Shown here one piece after another: positions 6,453-20,007 of a DNA stretch of 20,007 bases. The DNA comes from Anaerolineales bacterium (GTDB lineage: Bacteria; Chloroflexota; Anaerolineae; Anaerolineales; Villigracilaceae): contig DATDAG010000321.1 of NCBI GenBank assembly GCA_036525495.1, forward strand, positions 1-20,007, read 5' to 3'. The translations under genes and the position numbers were made by a program. Under the pieces are notes generated by a model. That model did no database searches. It was not told the DNA's origin and saw nothing but the letters and a program-made list of their open reading frames with translations. How positions within the stretch are numbered: position 1 is the stretch's first letter; each line of letters opens with the position of its first letter.

Positions 6453-7619
6453 ATGACATATTCTCATCTTTCTCATTTGAAATGTTCAGGTTGTAGCAGG
6501 GAATTCTCCGCGCGGGAAATCCATACCTACTGTCCTGATTGCCAGTCACCGCTTCTGGCAATCTATGATTTAAAGCAGGTACGCAGCCAAGTGGGCCGGG
6601 ATGAAATTACCCGCCGCCGAAAAGGGATGTGGCGCTGGCAGGAACTGCTCCCCATTGCCGATCAGGAAAATGTCGTATTCCTTGGAGAGGGCGATACCGC
6701 CTTGCTAAGAGTCTCCAATTTGGGCAGAGAACTTGGGCTTGCCAATCTTTTTGTAAAAGACGAAAGCACAAATCCTACTGGATCCTTCAAAGCCAGGGGG
6801 TTGGCGGCCGCTGTATCCAAGGCAAAAGAGTTGGGGATCAAAAAGGTGATTATCCCCACAGCAGGCAACGCGGGTGGGGCGATGGCGGCTTATGCTGCAC
6901 GCGCGAATATTCAAGCTATGATCTATATGCCCAAGGATACACCACGCGCTAATGTTGAAGAGAGCCGTATAGCAGGTGCGGAGGTCATCTTGATTGATGG
7001 GCTGATCAGTGACGCGGCTGGTCTGGCGGGAGAGAAAGCACGTGCAGAGGGGTGGTTTGATTTATCCACGTTTAAAGAGCCGTATCGCACAGAAGGAAAG
7101 AAGGTCATGGGGTATGAACTTGCAGAAGCCTTCGATTGGACATTACCCGATGTAATCATCTACCCCACCGGGGGAGGCACAGGTCTTGTCGGAATGTGGA
7201 AGGCATTTGCCGAACTCGAGGAATTGGGGTGGTTGGAAAACACAAAAAGACCGCGTATGGTAGCTGTACAGGCGGAAGGTTGCGCGCCAGTCATCAAGGC
7301 GTTTGAAAGTGGCGCGGAGTTTTGTGATTTTTGGATAAACGCACATACTCTGGCATCCGGGTTGCGGGTGCCAAAAAGTTTTGCTGATGCTTTGATCCTG
7401 AAAGACCTGCGCGCGAGTAACGGGACGGCTGTTTCGGTCAGTGACGAATCGATCTTACAGGCACAAAGTCAACTAGGCAGGCTGGAGGGGATCTTTGCCG
7501 CACCGGAAGGAGCAGCGACACTTGCGGCGCTTGTGACACTTCTCGAGCAAAAGTGGATCTCACCTAATGAGCGCGTGGTACTGTTCAATACCGGTTCCGG
7601 CTTGAAATATCTTGAATAG
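6453..7619 (+). CDS. thrC: Threonine synthase, archaeal-type with N-terminal zinc ribbon (PLP-dependent)
   Basis: Zinc ribbon CSGC...CPDC, WRWQELLPIAD, canonical VKDESTNPTGSFKARG (Lys codon 6789-6791), PTAGNAG, EPYRTEGKKV, PTGGGTGLVG, C-terminal FNTGSGLKY. The family assignment is solid. Whether this is the housekeeping thrC cannot be decided from the window. Confidence 0.8.
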   Translation: MTYSHLSHLKCSGCSREFSAREIHTYCPDCQSPLLAIYDLKQVRSQVGRDEITRRRKGMWRWQELLPIADQENVVFLGEGDTALLRVSNLGRELGLANLFVKDESTNPTGSFKARGLAAAVSKAKELGIKKVIIPTAGNAGGAMAAYAARANIQAMIYMPKDTPRANVEESRIAGAEVILIDGLISDAAGLAGEKARAEGWFDLSTFKEPYRTEGKKVMGYELAEAFDWTLPDVIIYPTGGGTGLVGMWKAFAELEELGWLENTKRPRMVAVQAEGCAPVIKAFESGAEFCDFWINAHTLASGLRVPKSFADALILKDLRASNGTAVSVSDESILQAQSQLGRLEGIFAAPEGAATLAALVTLLEQKWISPNERVVLFNTGSGLKYLE

Positions 7620-7705
7620 TAATGGCAGTGTATGAAATAACGGGGACAACTAAATAACGATCAGTGTAGGCAAAATTTCTTAGTTCAGGAACAGTTACCG
7701 GGAAG

Positions 7706-12989: not shown

Positions 12990-13649
12990 CTATCCGTTCA
13001 ATTTGATCAATCCCATTTTCACTGCCGCAAGCACCGCCTGGGCACGGTTGGGTTGTTTCATTTTTTCAAGAATATTCTTAGCGTGGCTTCGCACGGTCTC
13101 TTCACTGACGCTCAACTGCACCGCGATCTGCTTGTAGGTATTCGGCGTTGCCATGTATTCCACTATTTCCATTTCGCGCGGTGTAAGTGAAACAGGATGT
13201 GGTTGGTGCGGCTGCATCATCTCGATCACTTTCTTCATCACATCCGGATGCAGATACGCCTCACCATTCATCACCGCATGAATGGCTCGCACCAACTCCC
13301 CCGGCTCGATATTTTTCAACACATATCCTTCAATGCCCGCCGCTACCACTTCATGCACGCGGTCGTCCACTTCCGTGCCGGTCAACATCATGATCTTGAT
13401 ATCCGGATTCGACTTGCGCAATGCCAGCGCCATTTCCTGCCCGTCCATTTCAGGCATGACCAGATCCACAAGGACGATATCTGGATCGAGACTCTTTGCC
13501 AACTCCAAACCGATTCGTCCATTCTCCGCTTCGTCTACGACCTCGAAATCTGATTCCTGACGAAGGACCATCACCAATCCCTTACGGACTACTGCGTGAT
13601 CGTCAATGAGAAGGATGCGGATGCGATCAGGCATGATGATGGTGTCCAT
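12990..13649 (-). CDS. NarL/LuxR-family response regulator (REC + HTH)
   Basis: ILLIDDHAVVRKGL, IVLVDLVMPEMDG, IMMLTG and the LuxR-type HTH LTPREMEIVEYMATPNTYKQIAVQLSVSEETVRSHAKNILEKM. The start is ATG at 13649 or at 13634 (MPDRIRILLIDD). Either overlaps the kinase stop at 13627-13629. Confidence 0.9.
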   Translation of the reverse strand: MDTIIMPDRIRILLIDDHAVVRKGLVMVLRQESDFEVVDEAENGRIGLELAKSLDPDIVLVDLVMPEMDGQEMALALRKSNPDIKIMMLTGTEVDDRVHEVVAAGIEGYVLKNIEPGELVRAIHAVMNGEAYLHPDVMKKVIEMMQPHQPHPVSLTPREMEIVEYMATPNTYKQIAVQLSVSEETVRSHAKNILEKMKQPNRAQAVLAAVKMGLIKLNG

Positions 13650-15312
13650 TGATGGGGATATTGATCATGATACGCGTGCCTGCATTGGGTTGTGAATTGA
13701 TCTCGAAGTCACCGCCTAGGGCTTTTGTACGTTCCTGCAGTCCGCGTAAGCCAAAGTGCTCGCGGTTCTGACTGCGTGATATGGCAATCTCCGGGTCAAA
13801 TCCTTTGCCTTCATCAGATACCACTAAATAGATTTCGTCATCCGTCACCGTTAGACACAACCGTGCAGACTGCACTCCCGAATGCCGTGCAGAGTTTGCC
13901 AATGCCTCCTGCGCCATGCGATAGACCGTCCGCCGCATACCAGAAGAGAGGGAATTGAAATCGCCGTTATTGTTGAAGATGATGCTGAACCGCCGCGGAC
14001 GACAACAACTGCTGACGTAGTTCGTCAGGTCAGCCATGAAAAGCTCCATCGTGAGCGCGGAGGGCCACAGATCAAAGATGGAGCGGCGGACTCCGTCGTG
14101 GGCGTTATTGGCGAGCGCGCGCAATTCGATCAATTCTGTTTTTACGTCATCTGCTTTTGCAGGGAGCATGTTAATGCAGGCATCGAGGCTGTAAACGATT
14201 CCAAAGAGCGATTGCGCCACTGTATCGTGGATGTCGCGTGCAATGCGGTTGCGCTCGGTTTCGACGGCGAGGCGTCGGGCGCGGTCAATGCACAGGATGG
14301 TCGTACCAAGCGCGAGGGCGGCTTGATTCGCAACAGTCATCAGGGTGTTTTCGCGCTCTTTATTGATCCCCGTTTCGTCGACGAGGAGAAGCCCGACAGG
14401 GTGTTCCCGCAAGTAAAGCGGAAGCACAAGCCATTTGTTTTGATTGAGCCAGTTGTTGAGGGCAGGGTCGCGGACAAGGGTCCCGCCATTTGAAATGAAA
14501 TTGTTGCGATTTAATAAGGCCTTGAAAACTTCACCATTCTCTGACTTGAGGGGCAGTGTTTCTGTTTTGGGAAATGATTCCTCTTTGGGATATACCAACC
14601 AGCCGCCAAGTTCCTCGCGCGCGGGGTCAACCAATGCAACAACCGCTTTTGAAAAGCCAAGGTCGGTTGTGACCGCGCCGAGCACGCGCTCCTGAACGGA
14701 CAACAGGTCGGGCGCCGCCTGCAATAATATGGTGAGGTCGTGGATGATCTCCAACTGGCGGTGCGCGTTCGCAAGGTCTTCATTTGCCTGGTTTATGGAT
14801 TTGAGCAGATTGGATGAGTATGCAAACAGCATGGGGATTAACCATATGCCTGTCAATTGGGTTGTCATGGCTGTGACATTCATTTGCAGGTTGAGTATTT
14901 GTAATCCAATCAGTTCACCTGTGATATAAAGAAGTGTAAATATCAGGGATGCGATCAGCGCTCCTCTCATTTGAAAGAAAAATGCTCCTGCCAGCAATGG
15001 ACCTAGAGCATAGAGATAATACGGACTTTCGTGACCGCCACTGACCGCAAGGAGCCCGGCTGTGAAGATCAGGTCCACGCTTAGAAAAGCAGGGTGTTCC
15101 ACTACAATTCTATTGAGTTGGCGATTTGTCAGGGAAATGATGATGTTCGCAAGCAATGCAATGGCTAACAATAAGACAGGTGATATTGATCGGGCAGGCT
15201 GGTCTTGAAAGGCAATTCCAAAGAATACTGGAAGTAGCGACGCCCAGCGAAAGATAACCAAAAATGAAAAAACGCGGTTAGGTTGAAAAATTGACAGTAG
15301 TTTTTTGTACAT
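13627..15312 (-). CDS. Membrane sensor histidine kinase (about 6 TM, GAF, HisKA_3, HATPase_c), NarX/DegS-type
   Basis: The N-terminal ~170 aa are hydrophobic helices with only short loops. A GAF-like region contains LVLPLYLREHPVGLLLVDE. HisKA_3 H-box ERNRIARDIHDTVAQSLFG. ATPase boxes EALANSARHS, VSDEGKGF and GLRGLQERTKALGG. The protein ends NGHHHHA. No obvious SD precedes the ATG at 15312. Confidence 0.9.
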   Translation of the reverse strand: MYKKLLSIFQPNRVFSFLVIFRWASLLPVFFGIAFQDQPARSISPVLLLAIALLANIIISLTNRQLNRIVVEHPAFLSVDLIFTAGLLAVSGGHESPYYLYALGPLLAGAFFFQMRGALIASLIFTLLYITGELIGLQILNLQMNVTAMTTQLTGIWLIPMLFAYSSNLLKSINQANEDLANAHRQLEIIHDLTILLQAAPDLLSVQERVLGAVTTDLGFSKAVVALVDPAREELGGWLVYPKEESFPKTETLPLKSENGEVFKALLNRNNFISNGGTLVRDPALNNWLNQNKWLVLPLYLREHPVGLLLVDETGINKERENTLMTVANQAALALGTTILCIDRARRLAVETERNRIARDIHDTVAQSLFGIVYSLDACINMLPAKADDVKTELIELRALANNAHDGVRRSIFDLWPSALTMELFMADLTNYVSSCCRPRRFSIIFNNNGDFNSLSSGMRRTVYRMAQEALANSARHSGVQSARLCLTVTDDEIYLVVSDEGKGFDPEIAISRSQNREHFGLRGLQERTKALGGDFEINSQPNAGTRIMINIPINGHHHHA

Positions 15313-15452: not shown

Positions 15453-15692
15453 ATGACAGATGTAATAAAGGAAGACCAGGTATTGGATTGTTCAGGTATG
15501 CTCTGCCCTCTGCCTGTTGTTAAGACTTCCAAAGCGATCAAGGAACTGCAATCGGGACAGATCCTGAAAATGATCGCGACAGATCCCGGCGCGCCGCCGG
15601 ATATGGAGGCGTGGAGCAGGCAAACGGGGAATGATTTGCTCCGGTCCATGCAGGAAGATGGGAAGTTTGTCTTCTTCTTCCGCAAGAAATAA
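15453..15692 (+). CDS. tusA: TusA/SirA-family sulfur carrier protein
   Basis: LDCSGMLCPLPVVKTSKAIKELQSGQILKMIATDPGAPPDM aligns with E. coli TusA LDALGLRCPEPV...IADDPATTRDI (recalled from memory), with the active-site Cys in CPxP. I chose the ATG at 15453, with AAAGGAGG at 15441-15448, over the listed 15393 start. Confidence 0.85.
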   Translation: MTDVIKEDQVLDCSGMLCPLPVVKTSKAIKELQSGQILKMIATDPGAPPDMEAWSRQTGNDLLRSMQEDGKFVFFFRKK

Positions 15693-15818: not shown

Positions 15819-16343
15819 ATGTCAAAATCTGATCCGAATGCTCCGAAGAGACTGGCTCTCATTTCCAGCAAAGGGACTCTTGATTGGGCCTATCCCCCAT
15901 TCATTCTTGCGACTGCAGGAGCTGCGATGGGTTGGGAGGTAGGCGTTTTCTTTACCTTTTTCGGCTTGCCCCTGCTAAAACCAAAACTGACTGCCGCAGT
16001 CTCACCTTTGGGCAACCCAGCCATGCCGATGAAAATGCCCTTTGGACCTGAAGGTTTCCAGAATATCAATTGGCCCATGCCAAACCTGCTCATGGCGAAC
16101 GTGCCCGGATTTGAATCGGTTGCCACGAGCCTGATGAAACAGACTTTCAAGAACAAAGGTGTGGCTACCATTGAAGAGATGCGCGATATGGCGGTCGAAA
16201 TGGATGTTCGCCTGATCGGTTGCCAAATGACAATGGATGTCTTCGGGTTTAAAAGAGAAGACTTCATTTCAGAAGCAGAGATCGGCGGCGCGGCGACCTT
16301 CCTAGAATATGCTGCAGACGCGGATGTGCAGTTGTTCATCTAA
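15819..16343 (+). CDS. DsrE/DsrF-like family sulfur-transfer protein (long, COG2210-like form)
   Basis: KRLALISSKGTLDWAYPPFILATAGAAMGWEVGVFFTFFG and the C-terminal IGCQMTMDVFG...GGAATFLEYA...LFI are typical of the family as I recall it. There is a single Cys (codon 16221-16223). GAGAGG lies 5 nt before the ATG. Confidence 0.75.
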   Translation: MSKSDPNAPKRLALISSKGTLDWAYPPFILATAGAAMGWEVGVFFTFFGLPLLKPKLTAAVSPLGNPAMPMKMPFGPEGFQNINWPMPNLLMANVPGFESVATSLMKQTFKNKGVATIEEMRDMAVEMDVRLIGCQMTMDVFGFKREDFISEAEIGGAATFLEYAADADVQLFI

Positions 16344-16347
16344 TTGG

Positions 16348-16382
16348 AAATCGGCGGCTTAAGATCACTTAACCGCCGATTT
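16348..16382 (+). terminator. Strong hairpin immediately after the dsrE-like stop; terminator/attenuator-like
   Basis: AAATCGGCGGCTTAAG-atca-CTTAACCGCCGATTT forms a stem of about 15 bp with one bulged C (16358) and a 4-nt loop. It is followed by ATATAAAA, so the U-tract is poor (TTT lies partly in the stem). Confidence 0.45.
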
Positions 16383-16407
16383 ATATAAAACCCGGAGTGG
16401 AGAAAAG

Positions 16408-16746
16408 ATGGACGATTTTTCTGTAAAACACGAACTCAACGGAAACGTAGCTGTAGTTACCGTTTCAGGCAGAGTGGATTCTTTTACTGCCTCAATGCTG
16501 GATACTGAACTGGCAAAAATTGTACGCGAAAATAAACAGTTGGTATTGGATCTCAAGGAAGTGGTGTATATGTCATCCGCGGGGGTACGCGCCATCGTCA
16601 GGACATTACAGACTGCACAAAAGTCAAATGGCGGGGTCAGTCTGGCTTGTGTCACCGAGTCTGTTGAAACGGTCTTACGGACCGTCGGAATGTTGGAATT
16701 ACTCAAGGTGTATCCATCTGTGGATGAAGCAGTTGCAAGTTTCTAA
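16408..16746 (+). CDS. STAS-domain protein (anti-sigma-factor antagonist, SpoIIAA/RsbV-like)
   Basis: The 112-aa protein aligns by hand to B. subtilis SpoIIAA around the phospho-serine: LDLKEVVYMSSAGVRAIV versus LNLEDLSFMDSSGLGVIL, so Ser57 here matches Ser58 there. The C-terminal VLRTVGMLELLKVYPSVDEAV is typical of the family. GGAG lies 5 nt upstream, and the gene ends in a double stop TAATAA. Confidence 0.8.
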   Translation: MDDFSVKHELNGNVAVVTVSGRVDSFTASMLDTELAKIVRENKQLVLDLKEVVYMSSAGVRAIVRTLQTAQKSNGGVSLACVTESVETVLRTVGMLELLKVYPSVDEAVASF

Positions 16747-16767: not shown

Positions 16768-17163
16768 ATGTGGAAATCGAACGACCCTGATGAGAAAAAG
16801 ATCTTGTACGTCCAAACTCACGGAAGGAAAGACCCCGAGCGGACGGCTACGCCGTTCTTTCTCGCGACCGCCGCGGCCGCAATGGACAACGAGGTCTGCA
16901 TCTACTTTACGATGAACGGACCACAGTGTCTATCAAAAGGTGCGGGAGATGAGATCGTTGTTCCCAAGGCGGGAGGCGGTGGGAGGGAACTGAAATACTT
17001 CATCGACCAGGCAATTGACATGGGCGTGCGGCTCTTTGTCTGTCAGCCATCGCTCGACCTGCATGGTTTCACAATGGATGACATGATCGAGGGTGTGGAG
17101 ATGATCGGTGGCGCTGCATTCAATGACATGGCTGTTCATGCCGATGCAGTGATTTCTTTTTAG
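16768..17163 (+). CDS. DsrE-family protein (short, COG2044-like form)
   Basis: KKILYVQTHGRKDPERTATPFFLATAAAAMDNEVCIYFTMNG and RLFVCQPSLDLHGF...IGGAAFNDM...VISF. The Cys in VCQPS sits at the position equivalent to GCQMT of the other paralogue. GAGGAG lies 9 nt upstream. Confidence 0.7.
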   Translation: MWKSNDPDEKKILYVQTHGRKDPERTATPFFLATAAAAMDNEVCIYFTMNGPQCLSKGAGDEIVVPKAGGGGRELKYFIDQAIDMGVRLFVCQPSLDLHGFTMDDMIEGVEMIGGAAFNDMAVHADAVISF

Positions 17164-17203: not shown

Positions 17204-17911
17204 ATGCCTACCACATTAGATAATTGGAATCCAGGCAAGGCTGAAAGTCGTCATCCCGAAGCGACCTACGAAGAAAAGGAACGCCTCTTTCTTGAGGTCA
17301 AGAATGATACGCGCTACGAAGACTTCCTGTATGGATGTTACGAGTGCGGTATTTGTGTTTCGGCTTGTCCGTCCGCGCGTTTCTATGATTTCAGTCCGCG
17401 TGTGATCGCGCAGGCCATGGCACGCGAAGATGTTGAACGTATCTACGACATCATCACTGAAGACATTTGGAATTGCGCACAATGCTTCTCCTGCGTACGT
17501 TGTCCGCGTCAAAACAACCCTGGGGGGCTGGTCACCATTTTGCGCGAAGTCTCCCTCAAAAATGGATTACAAGAATCGAAAGATGCTTTGCAAGGTTACA
17601 GCCGTGTGATCTATAAGGTCATGCTCAAAGGCAATCAGGTTTCGCCTGATATGCTCCAGCCCGATTTCTTCCCCGACTGGGGTCCGTGGGTGCAGGGCTT
17701 TACCGAAAACATGCACGTCTGGCGTAAAGCCATTCCTATGGATTCGATCCGCGGGTTGACCGATGTTGCCTGGCGCACAGATCGTAAAACGCTTCTTGAA
17801 CTGTACACCATCTGGTTCGAGTCTGGCAATATGGACATCATCAAAGAATTGGATGAAAGCCTGTATGACCTGTTGACCGAAGTAATGGAAGAAGAATTGG
17901 AAGAGGGTTAA
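17204..17911 (+). CDS. hdrC: Heterodisulfide reductase subunit C-like protein (two [4Fe-4S] motifs)
   Basis: CYECGICVSACP (CxxCxxCxxxCP) and CAQCFSCVRCP. AGGAGG is at 17194-17199. Confidence 0.85.
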   Translation: MPTTLDNWNPGKAESRHPEATYEEKERLFLEVKNDTRYEDFLYGCYECGICVSACPSARFYDFSPRVIAQAMAREDVERIYDIITEDIWNCAQCFSCVRCPRQNNPGGLVTILREVSLKNGLQESKDALQGYSRVIYKVMLKGNQVSPDMLQPDFFPDWGPWVQGFTENMHVWRKAIPMDSIRGLTDVAWRTDRKTLLELYTIWFESGNMDIIKELDESLYDLLTEVMEEELEEG

Positions 17912-17981: not shown

Positions 17982-19202
17982 ATGACCGAAAATATGACCA
18001 CAGTTGAAGAGATCCTGGAACGAAAATCAAAACCCGTCATCCGTGATGCCTCTGTCGCGCCGACAGAAGACATGCACGACCGCTTGCTGGAACTTGAAGC
18101 CAAGGGTGAGATCATCCTGCAAAAGGTTCCCGAGCCTTATGTGGAATTTACGACCAAATATGGGCGCAAGAAAAAGATCCCCATCGAGCACACCTGGCAT
18201 CACAAATCCTGCGGCCACTGCGGACATATCCCTGGCTACGCATCATCCATCCTTTGGCTTCATCGCCAATTTAATTTGGATTATCACGATCCCACAGATC
18301 AAACATCCTGTACTGGCTGGAACTATTATGCGTCTGCAGCCTCCAACGCAGTGGGACAAGCCGCCGTTATGTCACGCAATTTTGCAGCCGCCTATGAGAC
18401 TGGATACTTCCCTTTAATCCATTGTGGTACATCCTTCGGTCACTACAAGGAGATCCGCGAACAGCTTGTTCATCACAAAGACTTGCGCGATGATGTCCGC
18501 CGCATTCTTGATAAGATGGGAAAACCCCTTGTTATCCCTGAAGAAATTGTTCATTACAGTGAGTGGGTTTATGCCATGCGCGATAAATTTGCTGAGCGCC
18601 AACTCGTGGACATGAGCGCCATCACAGCCACCGTACATCCTGCCTGTCACTACTACAAGATTGTTGCGGAAGATGCCATCTACGATCCCGAAATCTACGG
18701 CGGGCAGCGCACCGCAGTTGTTACAGCCCTACTTGAAAAACTTAACATGAACGTTGCGGATTACTCAACCTGGTTCGATTGCTGTGGATTTGGTTTCCGT
18801 CACGTGCTTGTTCAACGCGACTTCACCCGCTCTTATGCAGTTCTTCGCAAAATTGAGACCATGATCAACGAAGCCAACCCCGATCTGACAGTCACGCACG
18901 ACACAGGTTGTGTGACCACTCTTGATAAAAGCCAGTTTGCAGCCAAAGCACATGACCGCAAAGTGGGTGTCCCCGTTTTGTCTGACGCGCAGGTCGCGGC
19001 TTTGGCGATGGGAGCACATCCTTTCCGCGTAGTGCAGTTCCACTGGCATTCAACAGATTGGCGTCCGTTCCTCGAGAAACTTGGCATCAACTGGCAGAAA
19101 TACTGGGACGAGTTCCAGGGCGACCTTGATCAGATCCGCGCAGGCACAAAATCTGGAATTACCTGGGAAGATGCAGATCAACCCATTCATTTGACGGCTT
19201 AA
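17982..19202 (+). CDS. hdrB: Heterodisulfide reductase subunit B-like protein (CCG cysteine-rich domains)
   Basis: The C-terminal CCG-type pattern is C222...C267 C268 (FDCCGFG)...C310. The N-terminal cysteines are C77xxC80, C110 and C148. GGAG lies 6 nt upstream. Confidence 0.85.
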   Translation: MTENMTTVEEILERKSKPVIRDASVAPTEDMHDRLLELEAKGEIILQKVPEPYVEFTTKYGRKKKIPIEHTWHHKSCGHCGHIPGYASSILWLHRQFNLDYHDPTDQTSCTGWNYYASAASNAVGQAAVMSRNFAAAYETGYFPLIHCGTSFGHYKEIREQLVHHKDLRDDVRRILDKMGKPLVIPEEIVHYSEWVYAMRDKFAERQLVDMSAITATVHPACHYYKIVAEDAIYDPEIYGGQRTAVVTALLEKLNMNVADYSTWFDCCGFGFRHVLVQRDFTRSYAVLRKIETMINEANPDLTVTHDTGCVTTLDKSQFAAKAHDRKVGVPVLSDAQVAALAMGAHPFRVVQFHWHSTDWRPFLEKLGINWQKYWDEFQGDLDQIRAGTKSGITWEDADQPIHLTA

Positions 19203-19221: not shown

Positions 19222-20007
19222 ATGACATCTGGCAAAGTACTCATCATCGGCGGCGGACCATCAGGACTTGAGTCTGCTCGCTGCGTGGCTGAACTGGGCG
19301 GGGAAGCCATTCTCATTGAAAAACGTGAACGTCTCGGCGGCACACCAGATCGCGAGAATTATGCCAAGCTGACCCATCACTGGCGTGACGCGTCTGAAGC
19401 GATGGCTGAAATGTCTGCTGCGGTCACGAATAACCCCAATGTGGAAGTGAAGTATCAGACCGAAATGAAGTCACTGTCTGGAGAAGCTGGCAATTTCACG
19501 GTTGAGATCGAAGCGGGCGGCAAAGCCGAATCCCTGAACGTTGGTTCGGTTATTGTTGCTACAGGCTTCCAGCATTTTGATCCAGGCCGCGCCACGCAAT
19601 ACTACAACTACTATTCGTTCCCTGATGTCATCACGTTGACCGATCTTGAAAAGATGTTGAAGGAACATAACGTGGTGCGCCCATCGAATGGCGAAGCGCC
19701 AAAGAAGATCGCGTTCGTGCAGTGTGTGGGTTCGCGTGATCGCCAGATCGGTAACGAATATTGTTCAAAAGTTTGCTGTGGTATTGCTAGCAAACAGGCG
19801 ATCGAATTACGACAGCAGCTGCCTGATTCAAAGGTGATGATCTTCTATATTGACATGCGCATGTATGGCTACTGGGAGAACGAGATCTACTGGCCCGCGC
19901 AGGAAAAATATAAAGTCAATTATGTGAAAGGTGTGATCAGTGAAGTGTTGCCAAAAGGTAACCAGCTCCTGGTACGCGGTGAAGATACGACCATGTCCCG
20001 CCCGATG
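19222..20007 (+). CDS. hdrA: Heterodisulfide reductase subunit A-like flavoprotein, 3'-truncated by window edge
   Basis: This gene is absent from the ORF track because it has no stop in the window. My translation from the ATG at 19222 (GGAGGA at 19210-19215) gives MTSGKVLIIGGGPSGLESARCVAELGGEAILIEKRERLGGT (FAD Rossmann GxGxxG) and the HdrA cluster motif VQCVGSRD...YCSKVCCG. The frame is open for 262 codons to nt 20007. Confidence 0.9.
   Translation, partial: MTSGKVLIIGGGPSGLESARCVAELGGEAILIEKRERLGGTPDRENYAKLTHHWRDASEAMAEMSAAVTNNPNVEVKYQTEMKSLSGEAGNFTVEIEAGGKAESLNVGSVIVATGFQHFDPGRATQYYNYYSFPDVITLTDLEKMLKEHNVVRPSNGEAPKKIAFVQCVGSRDRQIGNEYCSKVCCGIASKQAIELRQQLPDSKVMIFYIDMRMYGYWENEIYWPAQEKYKVNYVKGVISEVLPKGNQLLVRGEDTTMSRPM

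Follow-up and report, generated by a model that had tools for sequence, protein, structure and literature searches.

The analysed stretch of DNA (the window) is an entire 20-kb contig of 20,007 nucleotides (nt) from a 72%-complete metagenome-assembled genome (G000) of the family Villigracilaceae (Anaerolineales). On its forward strand, the open reading frame (ORF) at positions 16408 to 16746 encodes a protein of 112 amino acid residues (MDDFSVKHEL...EAVASF) with Cys81 as its sole cysteine, which profile matches, the predicted fold, invariant alignment columns and selection estimates identify as a STAS-only protein of the SpoIIAA/RsbV type. The gene occupies the third place in an operon with the order tusA-dsrE2-STAS-dsrE-hdrC1-hdrB1-hdrA, which codes for proteins of heterodisulfide reductase-like (sHdr) sulfur oxidation. 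A preliminary description of this DNA, made from the sequence alone, had reported the gene as lying co-directionally within a dsrE-hdr unit, between two dsrE-family genes, and this arrangement was confirmed, as were the single cysteine and the exact gaps of 21 nt to the second dsrE and of 40, 70 and 19 nt before hdrC, hdrB and hdrA. It had also called the STAS gene the first gene of the unit, which does not hold, as tusA and dsrE2 come before it, although a hairpin does precede the gene. We consider, with moderate confidence, that the STAS protein is an accessory, SypA-like, phospho-switchable regulator which is co-expressed with sHdr and dispensable, and not a catalytic or structural component of sHdr.

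Profile searches matched the protein to the Pfam family STAS (PF01740; E value 6.1e-20, 71.4 bits with a cut-off of 22.6, residues 10-108) and to the NCBIfam family TIGR00377, 'anti-sigma factor antagonist' (70.1 bits with a cut-off of 53.45), and STAS_2 was matched as well. An AlphaFold2 model with a predicted local distance difference test score of 88.3 and a predicted template modelling (TM) score of 0.77 displayed the beta-alpha fold of SpoIIAA, and the best match found by Foldseek was SpoIIAA in its complex with SpoIIAB (1TID_B; TM score 0.89, root-mean-square deviation 1.5 Å). Further fold matches were TM1442 (1VC1; TM score 0.86), the Haliangium antagonist 4HYL and RsbW-bound RsbV (6M36_B; TM score 0.83), and the sequence matches in the PDB were exclusively anti-sigma antagonists, namely TM1442, 4HYL, RsbV and SpoIIAA. 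In the alignments, the YMSSAG motif of the window protein corresponds to YMDSAG of TM1442 and to YMSSAG of 4HYL, and Ser57 is aligned with the phospho-serine position of TM1442/SpoIIAA-type proteins. Among 33 sequences of the family, which have diverged to about 40% identity, the residues G21, D24, S25, S56, S57, G59, R61, G75, T92 and G94 are invariant. They include the motifs GxxD and SSxG, which in SpoIIAA (1TH8 and 1TID) contain the kinase-docking aspartate and the phospho-serine. Profiles, alignment and invariance agree with the earlier view of a SpoIIAA/RsbV-like protein with a phosphorylatable serine, Ser57, in the context YMSSAGV. The ratios of nonsynonymous to synonymous substitution rates (dN/dS) between pairs of STAS orthologues range from 0.04 to 0.25, indicating purifying selection, and these values together with 30 syntenic orthologues rule out a chance ORF or a pseudogene. 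The STAS family is well known and the window protein is, in itself, an ordinary representative of it; its function as a single-domain STAS protein of the anti-sigma-factor antagonist type is part of the interpretation that we hold with moderate confidence. In the long-read assembly of Ca. Villigracilis affinis (L043, 4337-4700), the STAS gene is frameshifted near its 3' end and its terminal ...EAVASF* can be read in a different frame, which might reflect a young pseudogene or a long-read indel error. A 113-residue ORF antisense to the window gene (16365-16706, reverse strand) had no family match and is taken to be a spurious shadow ORF.

The operon starts with tusA (15453-15692, forward strand), which encodes 79 residues with a CPLP motif (Pfam TusA, E value 4.8e-22), followed by a gene for a DsrE2-like sulfurtransferase of 174 residues (15819-16343, forward strand; DrsE_2, E value 7e-47) that scored 205.9 bits with the DsrE2 model NF047629, just below the cut-off of 210. 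After the dsrE2 stop codon there is a hairpin with a 15-bp stem (16348-16382, forward strand; -20.4 kcal/mol, z -3.62), followed by UUUAUAUAAAA. A consensus scan made no call of an intrinsic terminator after dsrE2. The tail of this hairpin is T-poor, and the hairpin is possibly an attenuator, an mRNA-stability element or an element similar to repetitive extragenic palindromic (REP) sequences. As read from the sequence, a Shine-Dalgarno-like GGAGTGGAG (16394-16402, forward strand) is located 5 nt upstream of the STAS start codon ATG. The second DsrE-family sulfurtransferase (16768-17163, forward strand; 131 residues; DsrE, E value 4e-19) is probably of the DsrE3 type, and its gene is preceded by the Shine-Dalgarno sequence GAGGAGAGGG; relatives have a conserved GGAGAGGGCAG as Shine-Dalgarno sequence. 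Profile matches identified the three following forward-strand genes as encoding an sHdrC1-like ferredoxin subunit (17204-17911), an sHdrB1-like subunit with CCG domains (17982-19202) and an sHdrA-like flavoprotein (19222-20007) that is truncated by the end of the contig. Divergently from tusA, a membrane-bound GAF-HisKA_3 histidine kinase (13627-15312, reverse strand) and its partner, a response regulator of the LuxR/NarL type (12990-13649, reverse strand), are encoded, and this kinase accompanies the operon in nearly all loci of the clade described below, with or without the STAS gene.

Type II sHdr has been defined by the gene set shdrC1B1AHB3-etfAB-emo, to which TusA and DsrE proteins are accessory, and Chloroflexota were named among its carriers (PMC11094781; Tanabe et al., 2024). 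In the sister locus L028, which is 94% identical, hdrA is followed by genes for a hypothetical protein of 267 residues (hdrH-like) and a Fer4+CCG fusion protein of 426 residues (hdrB3-like), and by etfB and etfA. Because the sister locus continues in this way, the window locus is assigned to the type II sHdr clusters, with tusA, dsrE2, dsrE, hdrC1, hdrB1 and hdrA present in the window itself. Unlike the described clusters, the window locus has a STAS gene in the interval from dsrE2 to dsrE. The outgroup type II loci (Thermomicrobium, Ardenticatenaceae) have tusA upstream and, in the interval from dsrE to hdrC1, lbpA (GCV_H) together with a small gene of thioredoxin-like type (L096, 4552-5303, with equivalents in L080-L106), whereas the window has neither of these at that place; the Villigracilaceae clade has lost both from the dsrE-hdrC1 position. 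LbpA was not found within the window, and elsewhere in G000 there are two tandem genes (C200:1253-2139), assigned to the GCV_H family only. At the place where proteobacterial sHdr systems have ArsR-type regulators, the window carries the divergent GAF-kinase/LuxR pair.

In order to determine how widespread this arrangement is, 80 loci were gathered with HdrB1 and 15 with the STAS protein; a second search with HdrB1 of Thermomicrobium gave mostly the same Chloroflexota loci, other phyla being covered through the literature. Among the 72 loci that hold DsrE2, DsrE, HdrC and HdrB, 30 (the window included) have a STAS ORF of 108-130 residues exactly between dsrE2 and dsrE, and in the remaining 42 the spacer between these two genes measures just 11-282 nt. 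Orthologues in this slot are thus present in 29 further species-level genomes. In the tree built from the concatenated sequences of the four flanking proteins, one well-supported clade of 51 loci contained every one of the 30 STAS-positive loci, which occupy three deep sub-clades there and require at least 10-13 gains or losses of the gene. STAS was found in none of the 21 loci outside the clade (Thermomicrobium, Ardenticatenaceae and others), and neither a hidden Markov model scan of the flanks (±8 kb) nor the second locus search detected it anywhere but in this slot and this clade. The preliminary description had considered that the gene might be missing from all related sHdr loci, as an incidental insertion would be; instead, the same slot is filled in 30 of the 51 closely related loci. 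A general sHdr component is nevertheless ruled out, as no outgroup locus has the gene and 21 of the 51 clade loci are without it. The STAS family profile was also applied to 151 genomes drawn evenly from the family, with 36 genera represented; it matched 10 genomes, which belong to 4 genera, and 8 of the 10 copies occupy the sHdr slot; in the HdrB-selected set this was the case for 29 of 34 copies, always in operon orientation. Genomes whose sHdr locus is without STAS have no family copy anywhere else. From its distribution, the STAS gene appears to be an optional accessory that is confined to one Villigracilaceae clade and has been repeatedly lost or exchanged.

By far, STAS is the most divergent gene of the operon. 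When compared to the sister locus L028, the STAS protein is 42% identical and its neighbours are 94% identical, and at the DNA level the flanks are 80-88% identical, as against 50-58% within the gene. Where the flanking proteins of two loci are 93% identical or more, the STAS proteins share 42-91% identity, with a median of 63%. The STAS tree contains three allele classes which cut across the sub-clades of the locus tree, and approximately unbiased (AU) tests, for groups named after the STAS tree had been inspected, rejected STAS monophyly for sister loci (window and L028, p 1e-7; L038 and L039, p 1e-4). This conflict between the two trees indicates cassette replacement. The window allele groups with copies outside sHdr loci, which are found beside ribonucleotide reductase (RNR)/NrdR and a Mut7-C RNase (G001, G009, G015, G084 and G085, with a fragment in G004) and in other contexts (G079, G136 and G199), the latter being, with 61-67% identity, the best matches found to the window STAS; the RNR-adjacent region of G000 has no copy of the family. 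Copies inside and outside the slot form one clade (support 98/99) apart from other STAS proteins of the order. Its nearest outsiders, with 43-49% identity, come from five other families of the order and each directly adjoins a gene for an RsbW-like kinase, so that the family descends from canonical antagonists; its genes have later been moved, replaced and lost.

The preliminary description had noted the lack of a partner kinase, a PP2C phosphatase and a sigma factor in the window. Profile searches of the window likewise detected no RsbW-like kinase, PP2C or sigma factor, the sole HATPase_c_2 signal being a sub-threshold one in the histidine kinase at 13627-15312; a search of the genome did find RsbW-like and PP2C genes elsewhere. 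An adjacent kinase of the RsbW/SpoIIAB type was not found within ±6-8 kb in any related locus. For the antagonist family an adjacent cognate kinase is usual and not obligatory, and orphan antagonists are known. G000 possesses two complete partner-switch modules, one on contig C476, with genes for STAS, an RsbW-like kinase (681-1124) and a phosphatase with four GAF domains and PP2C, and one on contig C124, with an RsbW-like kinase (7210-7650), a 1318-residue 7TM-PASx4-GAF-PP2C-RsbW fusion and STAS. The fusion protein (C124:7655-11611, L108) combines a seven-transmembrane sensor, four PAS domains, a GAF domain, a PP2C (SpoIIE) domain and an RsbW-like kinase domain, and so has the layout of an all-in-one partner-switch sensor; a separate RsbW-like gene lies before it, and a STAS gene and a gene for a patatin-like phospholipase lie after it. 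Stand-alone RsbW-like kinases were found in 47 of 50 clade genomes, regardless of whether the sHdr slot holds STAS, and co-occurrence with the near-universal RsbW was therefore uninformative as a test for a partner.

The canonical partner-switch mechanism of STAS antagonists is described elsewhere (PMC8256260), and on this basis the following sequence of events may be proposed. The STAS gene would have been recruited into the tusA-dsrE2-[STAS]-dsrE-shdrC1B1A operon in the ancestor of one Villigracilaceae clade. Through the co-transcription that we infer, its product would be made together with the sulfur-oxidation proteins, presumably under control of the divergent GAF-kinase/LuxR regulator. 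Unphosphorylated STAS would bind its target, and phosphorylation of Ser57 by an RsbW-like serine kinase, for which the C476 enzyme beside its own STAS and GAFx4-PP2C genes is the candidate, would switch it off, until a PP2C phosphatase resets the switch. The presumed target might be the RsbW-like kinase/anti-sigma factor itself, in which case sHdr induction and a partner-switch regulon would be linked, or another partner in the pathway; any effect on sulfur oxidation is likewise presumed. A phospho-switchable partner-switch protein is supported by the fold, by the ancestry of the family and by the invariant motifs for docking and phosphorylation, which have stayed fixed as the remaining sequence diverged. 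The constant position and orientation within the operon, the spacers of only 9-15 nt after dsrE2 in many relatives and the enrichment of 8 out of 10 copies in the slot speak for expression together with the sulfur-oxidation genes. A catalytic or structural role in sHdr, on the other hand, fits poorly with how often the gene is absent, with the replacement of alleles and with the paralogues in unrelated contexts, all of which favour an accessory regulator.

Several observations weigh against this proposal. No kinase, phosphatase or sigma factor gene adjoins STAS, and the presence of RsbW does not track that of STAS; all three genomes without RsbW are STAS-positive. One of them, G021 (97% complete, 50 contigs), keeps the sHdr-slot STAS with Ser57 and under purifying selection, and has neither a stand-alone RsbW-like kinase nor a large GAF-PP2C module; the other two, whose completeness is not established, gave no RsbW match. 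RsbW is thus not an obligatory partner everywhere, and to judge from G021 the protein may have a functional target other than RsbW, which fits a model after SypA, with the unphosphorylated STAS-only protein as the active output. Also, the operon persists without STAS in 21 of the 51 clade loci (41%) and in all loci outside the clade, close paralogues (55-67% identity) occur in at least three unrelated contexts, and the strong hairpin between dsrE2 and STAS would allow for more than one transcript structure.

It is possible, though unlikely, that the gene is instead a passenger, that is, a generic antagonist of a general partner-switch network with no specific role in sulfur oxidation, and that the dsrE2-dsrE spacer is a permissive, recombination-prone hot spot. 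The at least 10-13 presence/absence changes on the locus tree, the conflict with the STAS tree (AU p 1e-7 and 1e-4) and the drop in DNA identity to the sister locus from 80-88% to 50-58% fit such an explanation, as do the diverse strong hairpins or REP-like repeats which fill the spacer in STAS-positive and STAS-negative relatives, the family copies beside RNR/Mut7-C and in other contexts, and the genomes that have no family copy, yet keep the operon. However, a passenger would not readily account for the concentration of copies in one slot in the unbiased draw (8/10) and in the locus-selected set (29/34), always in operon orientation, nor for the tight packing in many loci, where the STAS start lies just 9-15 nt past the dsrE2 stop codon, nor for purifying selection and the occupancy of the slot across three deep sub-clades. 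A different kind of function would be that of a non-phosphorylated, MlaB-like accessory subunit or adaptor which, independently of any kinase, would attach to DsrE2, the second DsrE, TusA or the sHdr complex and support it structurally or as a chaperone. In favour of this, MlaB and similar STAS proteins are known accessory subunits, the slot flanked by the two sulfurtransferase genes is the dominant location of the family, and the gene is retained in G021, which has no RsbW-like kinase. We nevertheless regard this as distinctly unlikely, since the invariant residues are exactly those of the kinase-docking and phospho-site motifs. Elsewhere the protein surface has diverged to about 40% identity, as against 80-95% for the proposed partners, a pattern contrary to that expected of an obligate subunit co-evolving with them; STAS is missing from 41% of the clade loci and from all outgroup loci, alleles with as little as 42% identity have been exchanged between 94%-identical loci, and paralogues of 55-67% identity exist in contexts unrelated to sulfur.

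We give little credence to a phospho-switch that would directly gate sulfur oxidation at the post-translational level, with unphosphorylated STAS binding TusA, DsrE2, DsrE or the sHdr complex to control sulfur delivery and a GAF-PP2C/RsbW module setting its state. Two biochemical roles put forward in the preliminary description, a sulfur relay via Cys81 and the binding of anions or nucleotides known from STAS domains such as those of SulP transporters, here conceived as a persulfide on Cys81 or a bound sulfur oxyanion, could draw on the position between two sulfurtransferase genes and on the single cysteine of the window protein, and both are very improbable. Cys81 occurs in only two of the 33 family sequences (window and L058), all others having serine or alanine, and no cysteine is conserved family-wide; this lack of conservation rules out the relay. 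Similarly, anion binding as in SulP was ruled out by profile score and fold ranking: the SulP/DauA profile gave 18.9 bits with a cut-off of 614, the stand-alone protein of 112 residues has no SulP membrane domain, and STAS domains of SLC26 ranked 27th or lower in the fold search, far below the anti-sigma antagonists that made up all of the closest structures.

The accessory regulator proposed here resembles SpoIIAA, RsbV and TM1442 (1TID/1TH8, 6M36 and 1SBO/1VC1) in size, in fold (TM scores 0.83-0.89) and in the GxxD and (D/S)SxG motifs with a phosphorylatable serine, and G000, like the organisms with such systems, encodes RsbW-type kinases and PP2C phosphatases. In contrast to those antagonists, its gene has no kinase, phosphatase or sigma factor gene as a neighbour and sits in a sulfur-oxidation operon, and G021 keeps it although an RsbW homologue is missing there. 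Another precedent is SypA of Vibrio fischeri, a STAS-only protein under the control of SypE whose gene is part of the syp polysaccharide locus (PMC4517449; PMC8256260), and of which the unphosphorylated form is active on a target that has not been identified (PMC8256260). As in the case of SypA, the STAS-only gene of the window lies within the locus it associates with and not with a sigma factor, and Ser56/57 are conserved. However, the window locus has no SypE-like response-regulator kinase/phosphatase, its only regulators being the GAF-HisKA_3 kinase and the LuxR-type response regulator; the operon serves sulfur oxidation, the likeness is one of the STAS fold alone, and SypA is required for its pathway while the gene described here is often absent. 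The missing SypE-like gene would make it less probable that the protein is a SypA, and would not make it less probable that it works like SypA.

Most genomes of the clade have one stand-alone RsbW-like kinase with an adjacent STAS gene plus an extra orphan STAS, which resembles networks of several antagonists and one kinase (RsbV1/RsbV2-RsbW of Chlamydia; RsfA/RsfB-UsfX of mycobacteria, PDB 8IH8) in gene content. With MlaB, the accessory subunit of the MlaFEDB transporter, the window protein shares that it is a small STAS-only protein from an operon of non-regulatory proteins; unlike there, ABC transporter genes are absent, and the invariant phospho-serine motif, the fast evolution and the frequent loss speak against an obligate subunit.

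The preliminary description did not recall STAS among the components of described sHdr loci, and indeed, in full-text searches across 8.4 million papers, none was found that links STAS proteins or anti-sigma antagonists to sHdr or to 'heterodisulfide reductase-like'; in a survey of sHdr sulfurtransferases, 'STAS' and 'anti-sigma' occur 0 times (PMC11094781). New here is the systematic yet optional embedding of a STAS gene in the type II sHdr operon of one Chloroflexota family, with a cassette-like turnover. The sHdr system is a widespread cytoplasmic pathway of sulfur oxidation, and Villigracilaceae are abundant filaments in wastewater treatment plants. To our knowledge, sHdr regulation is known for a few Proteobacteria only, type II and Chloroflexota systems have hardly been studied, and Chloroflexota are a phylum in which partner switching is unexplored. 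If the proposal is true, a partner-switch protein wired into the sHdr operon would give the regulation of sulfur oxidation a new input or output, and would be a further case, after SypA, of an operon-embedded STAS outside classical sigma-factor control. Were direct gating true, it would be the first case of partner switching in control of an energy-conserving pathway of sulfur oxidation, with allele turnover as a tuning between ecotypes. Dispensability and narrow distribution limit the general weight of the STAS gene for the sHdr mechanism. The natural mix of STAS-positive and STAS-negative genomes and the three allele classes in near-identical operons offer a ready comparative experiment.

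With regard to the copies outside the slot, in L013 (5598-6299) and L015 (5733-6434), from G001 and G015, the STAS gene is in the second home of its family, beside a gene for a Mut7-C RNase that has a ubiquitin-like domain at its N-terminus (Ub-Mut7C); the arrangement is convergent with the genes for a class II ribonucleotide reductase and NrdR. The RNR genes of L015 and of G000 (contig C521) hold an intein with a LAGLIDADG domain. The most similar copy, with 66% identity to the window STAS, is located in L180 (4069-4821, G079) at 1.3 kb from a gene of the TauE/SafE sulfite-exporter family; it adjoins a lactonase-like gene and a gene for an unknown protein of 184 residues, and the link to sulfur may be a coincidence.

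The spacer between dsrE2 and dsrE was also compared among relatives. Searches of STAS-less spacers with tblastn and blastn-short detected no STAS remnants. Hairpins of several unrelated sequences occur in the spacer with and without STAS, and the diverse hairpins and REP-like repeats in STAS-less spacers mark it as a plastic region. Strong hairpins of two recurring kinds are found across L042, L055, L057, L059, L062, L063, L067, L071, L073 and L077 and across L032, L043, L060, L061, L064, L070 and L082, the one kind consisting of long imperfect palindromes of GTACACAGGTA/ACAAGTA-like units and the other of the palindrome TAGGTCACGC-loop-GCGTGACCTA. Both kinds are REP-type in appearance and are present in STAS-positive and STAS-negative loci. 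In L082, which has no STAS, the same palindrome is directly followed by the Shine-Dalgarno sequence of dsrE, a layout consistent with a clean deletion between two AAGGAGAG Shine-Dalgarno-like repeats that flank STAS in L061. A second variable spot lies between hdrB1 and hdrA, where 0.5-3 kb of extra DNA are found in L048 (7206-8613), L059 (7197-10282), L068 (7191-8290), L067, L063, L050 and L078.

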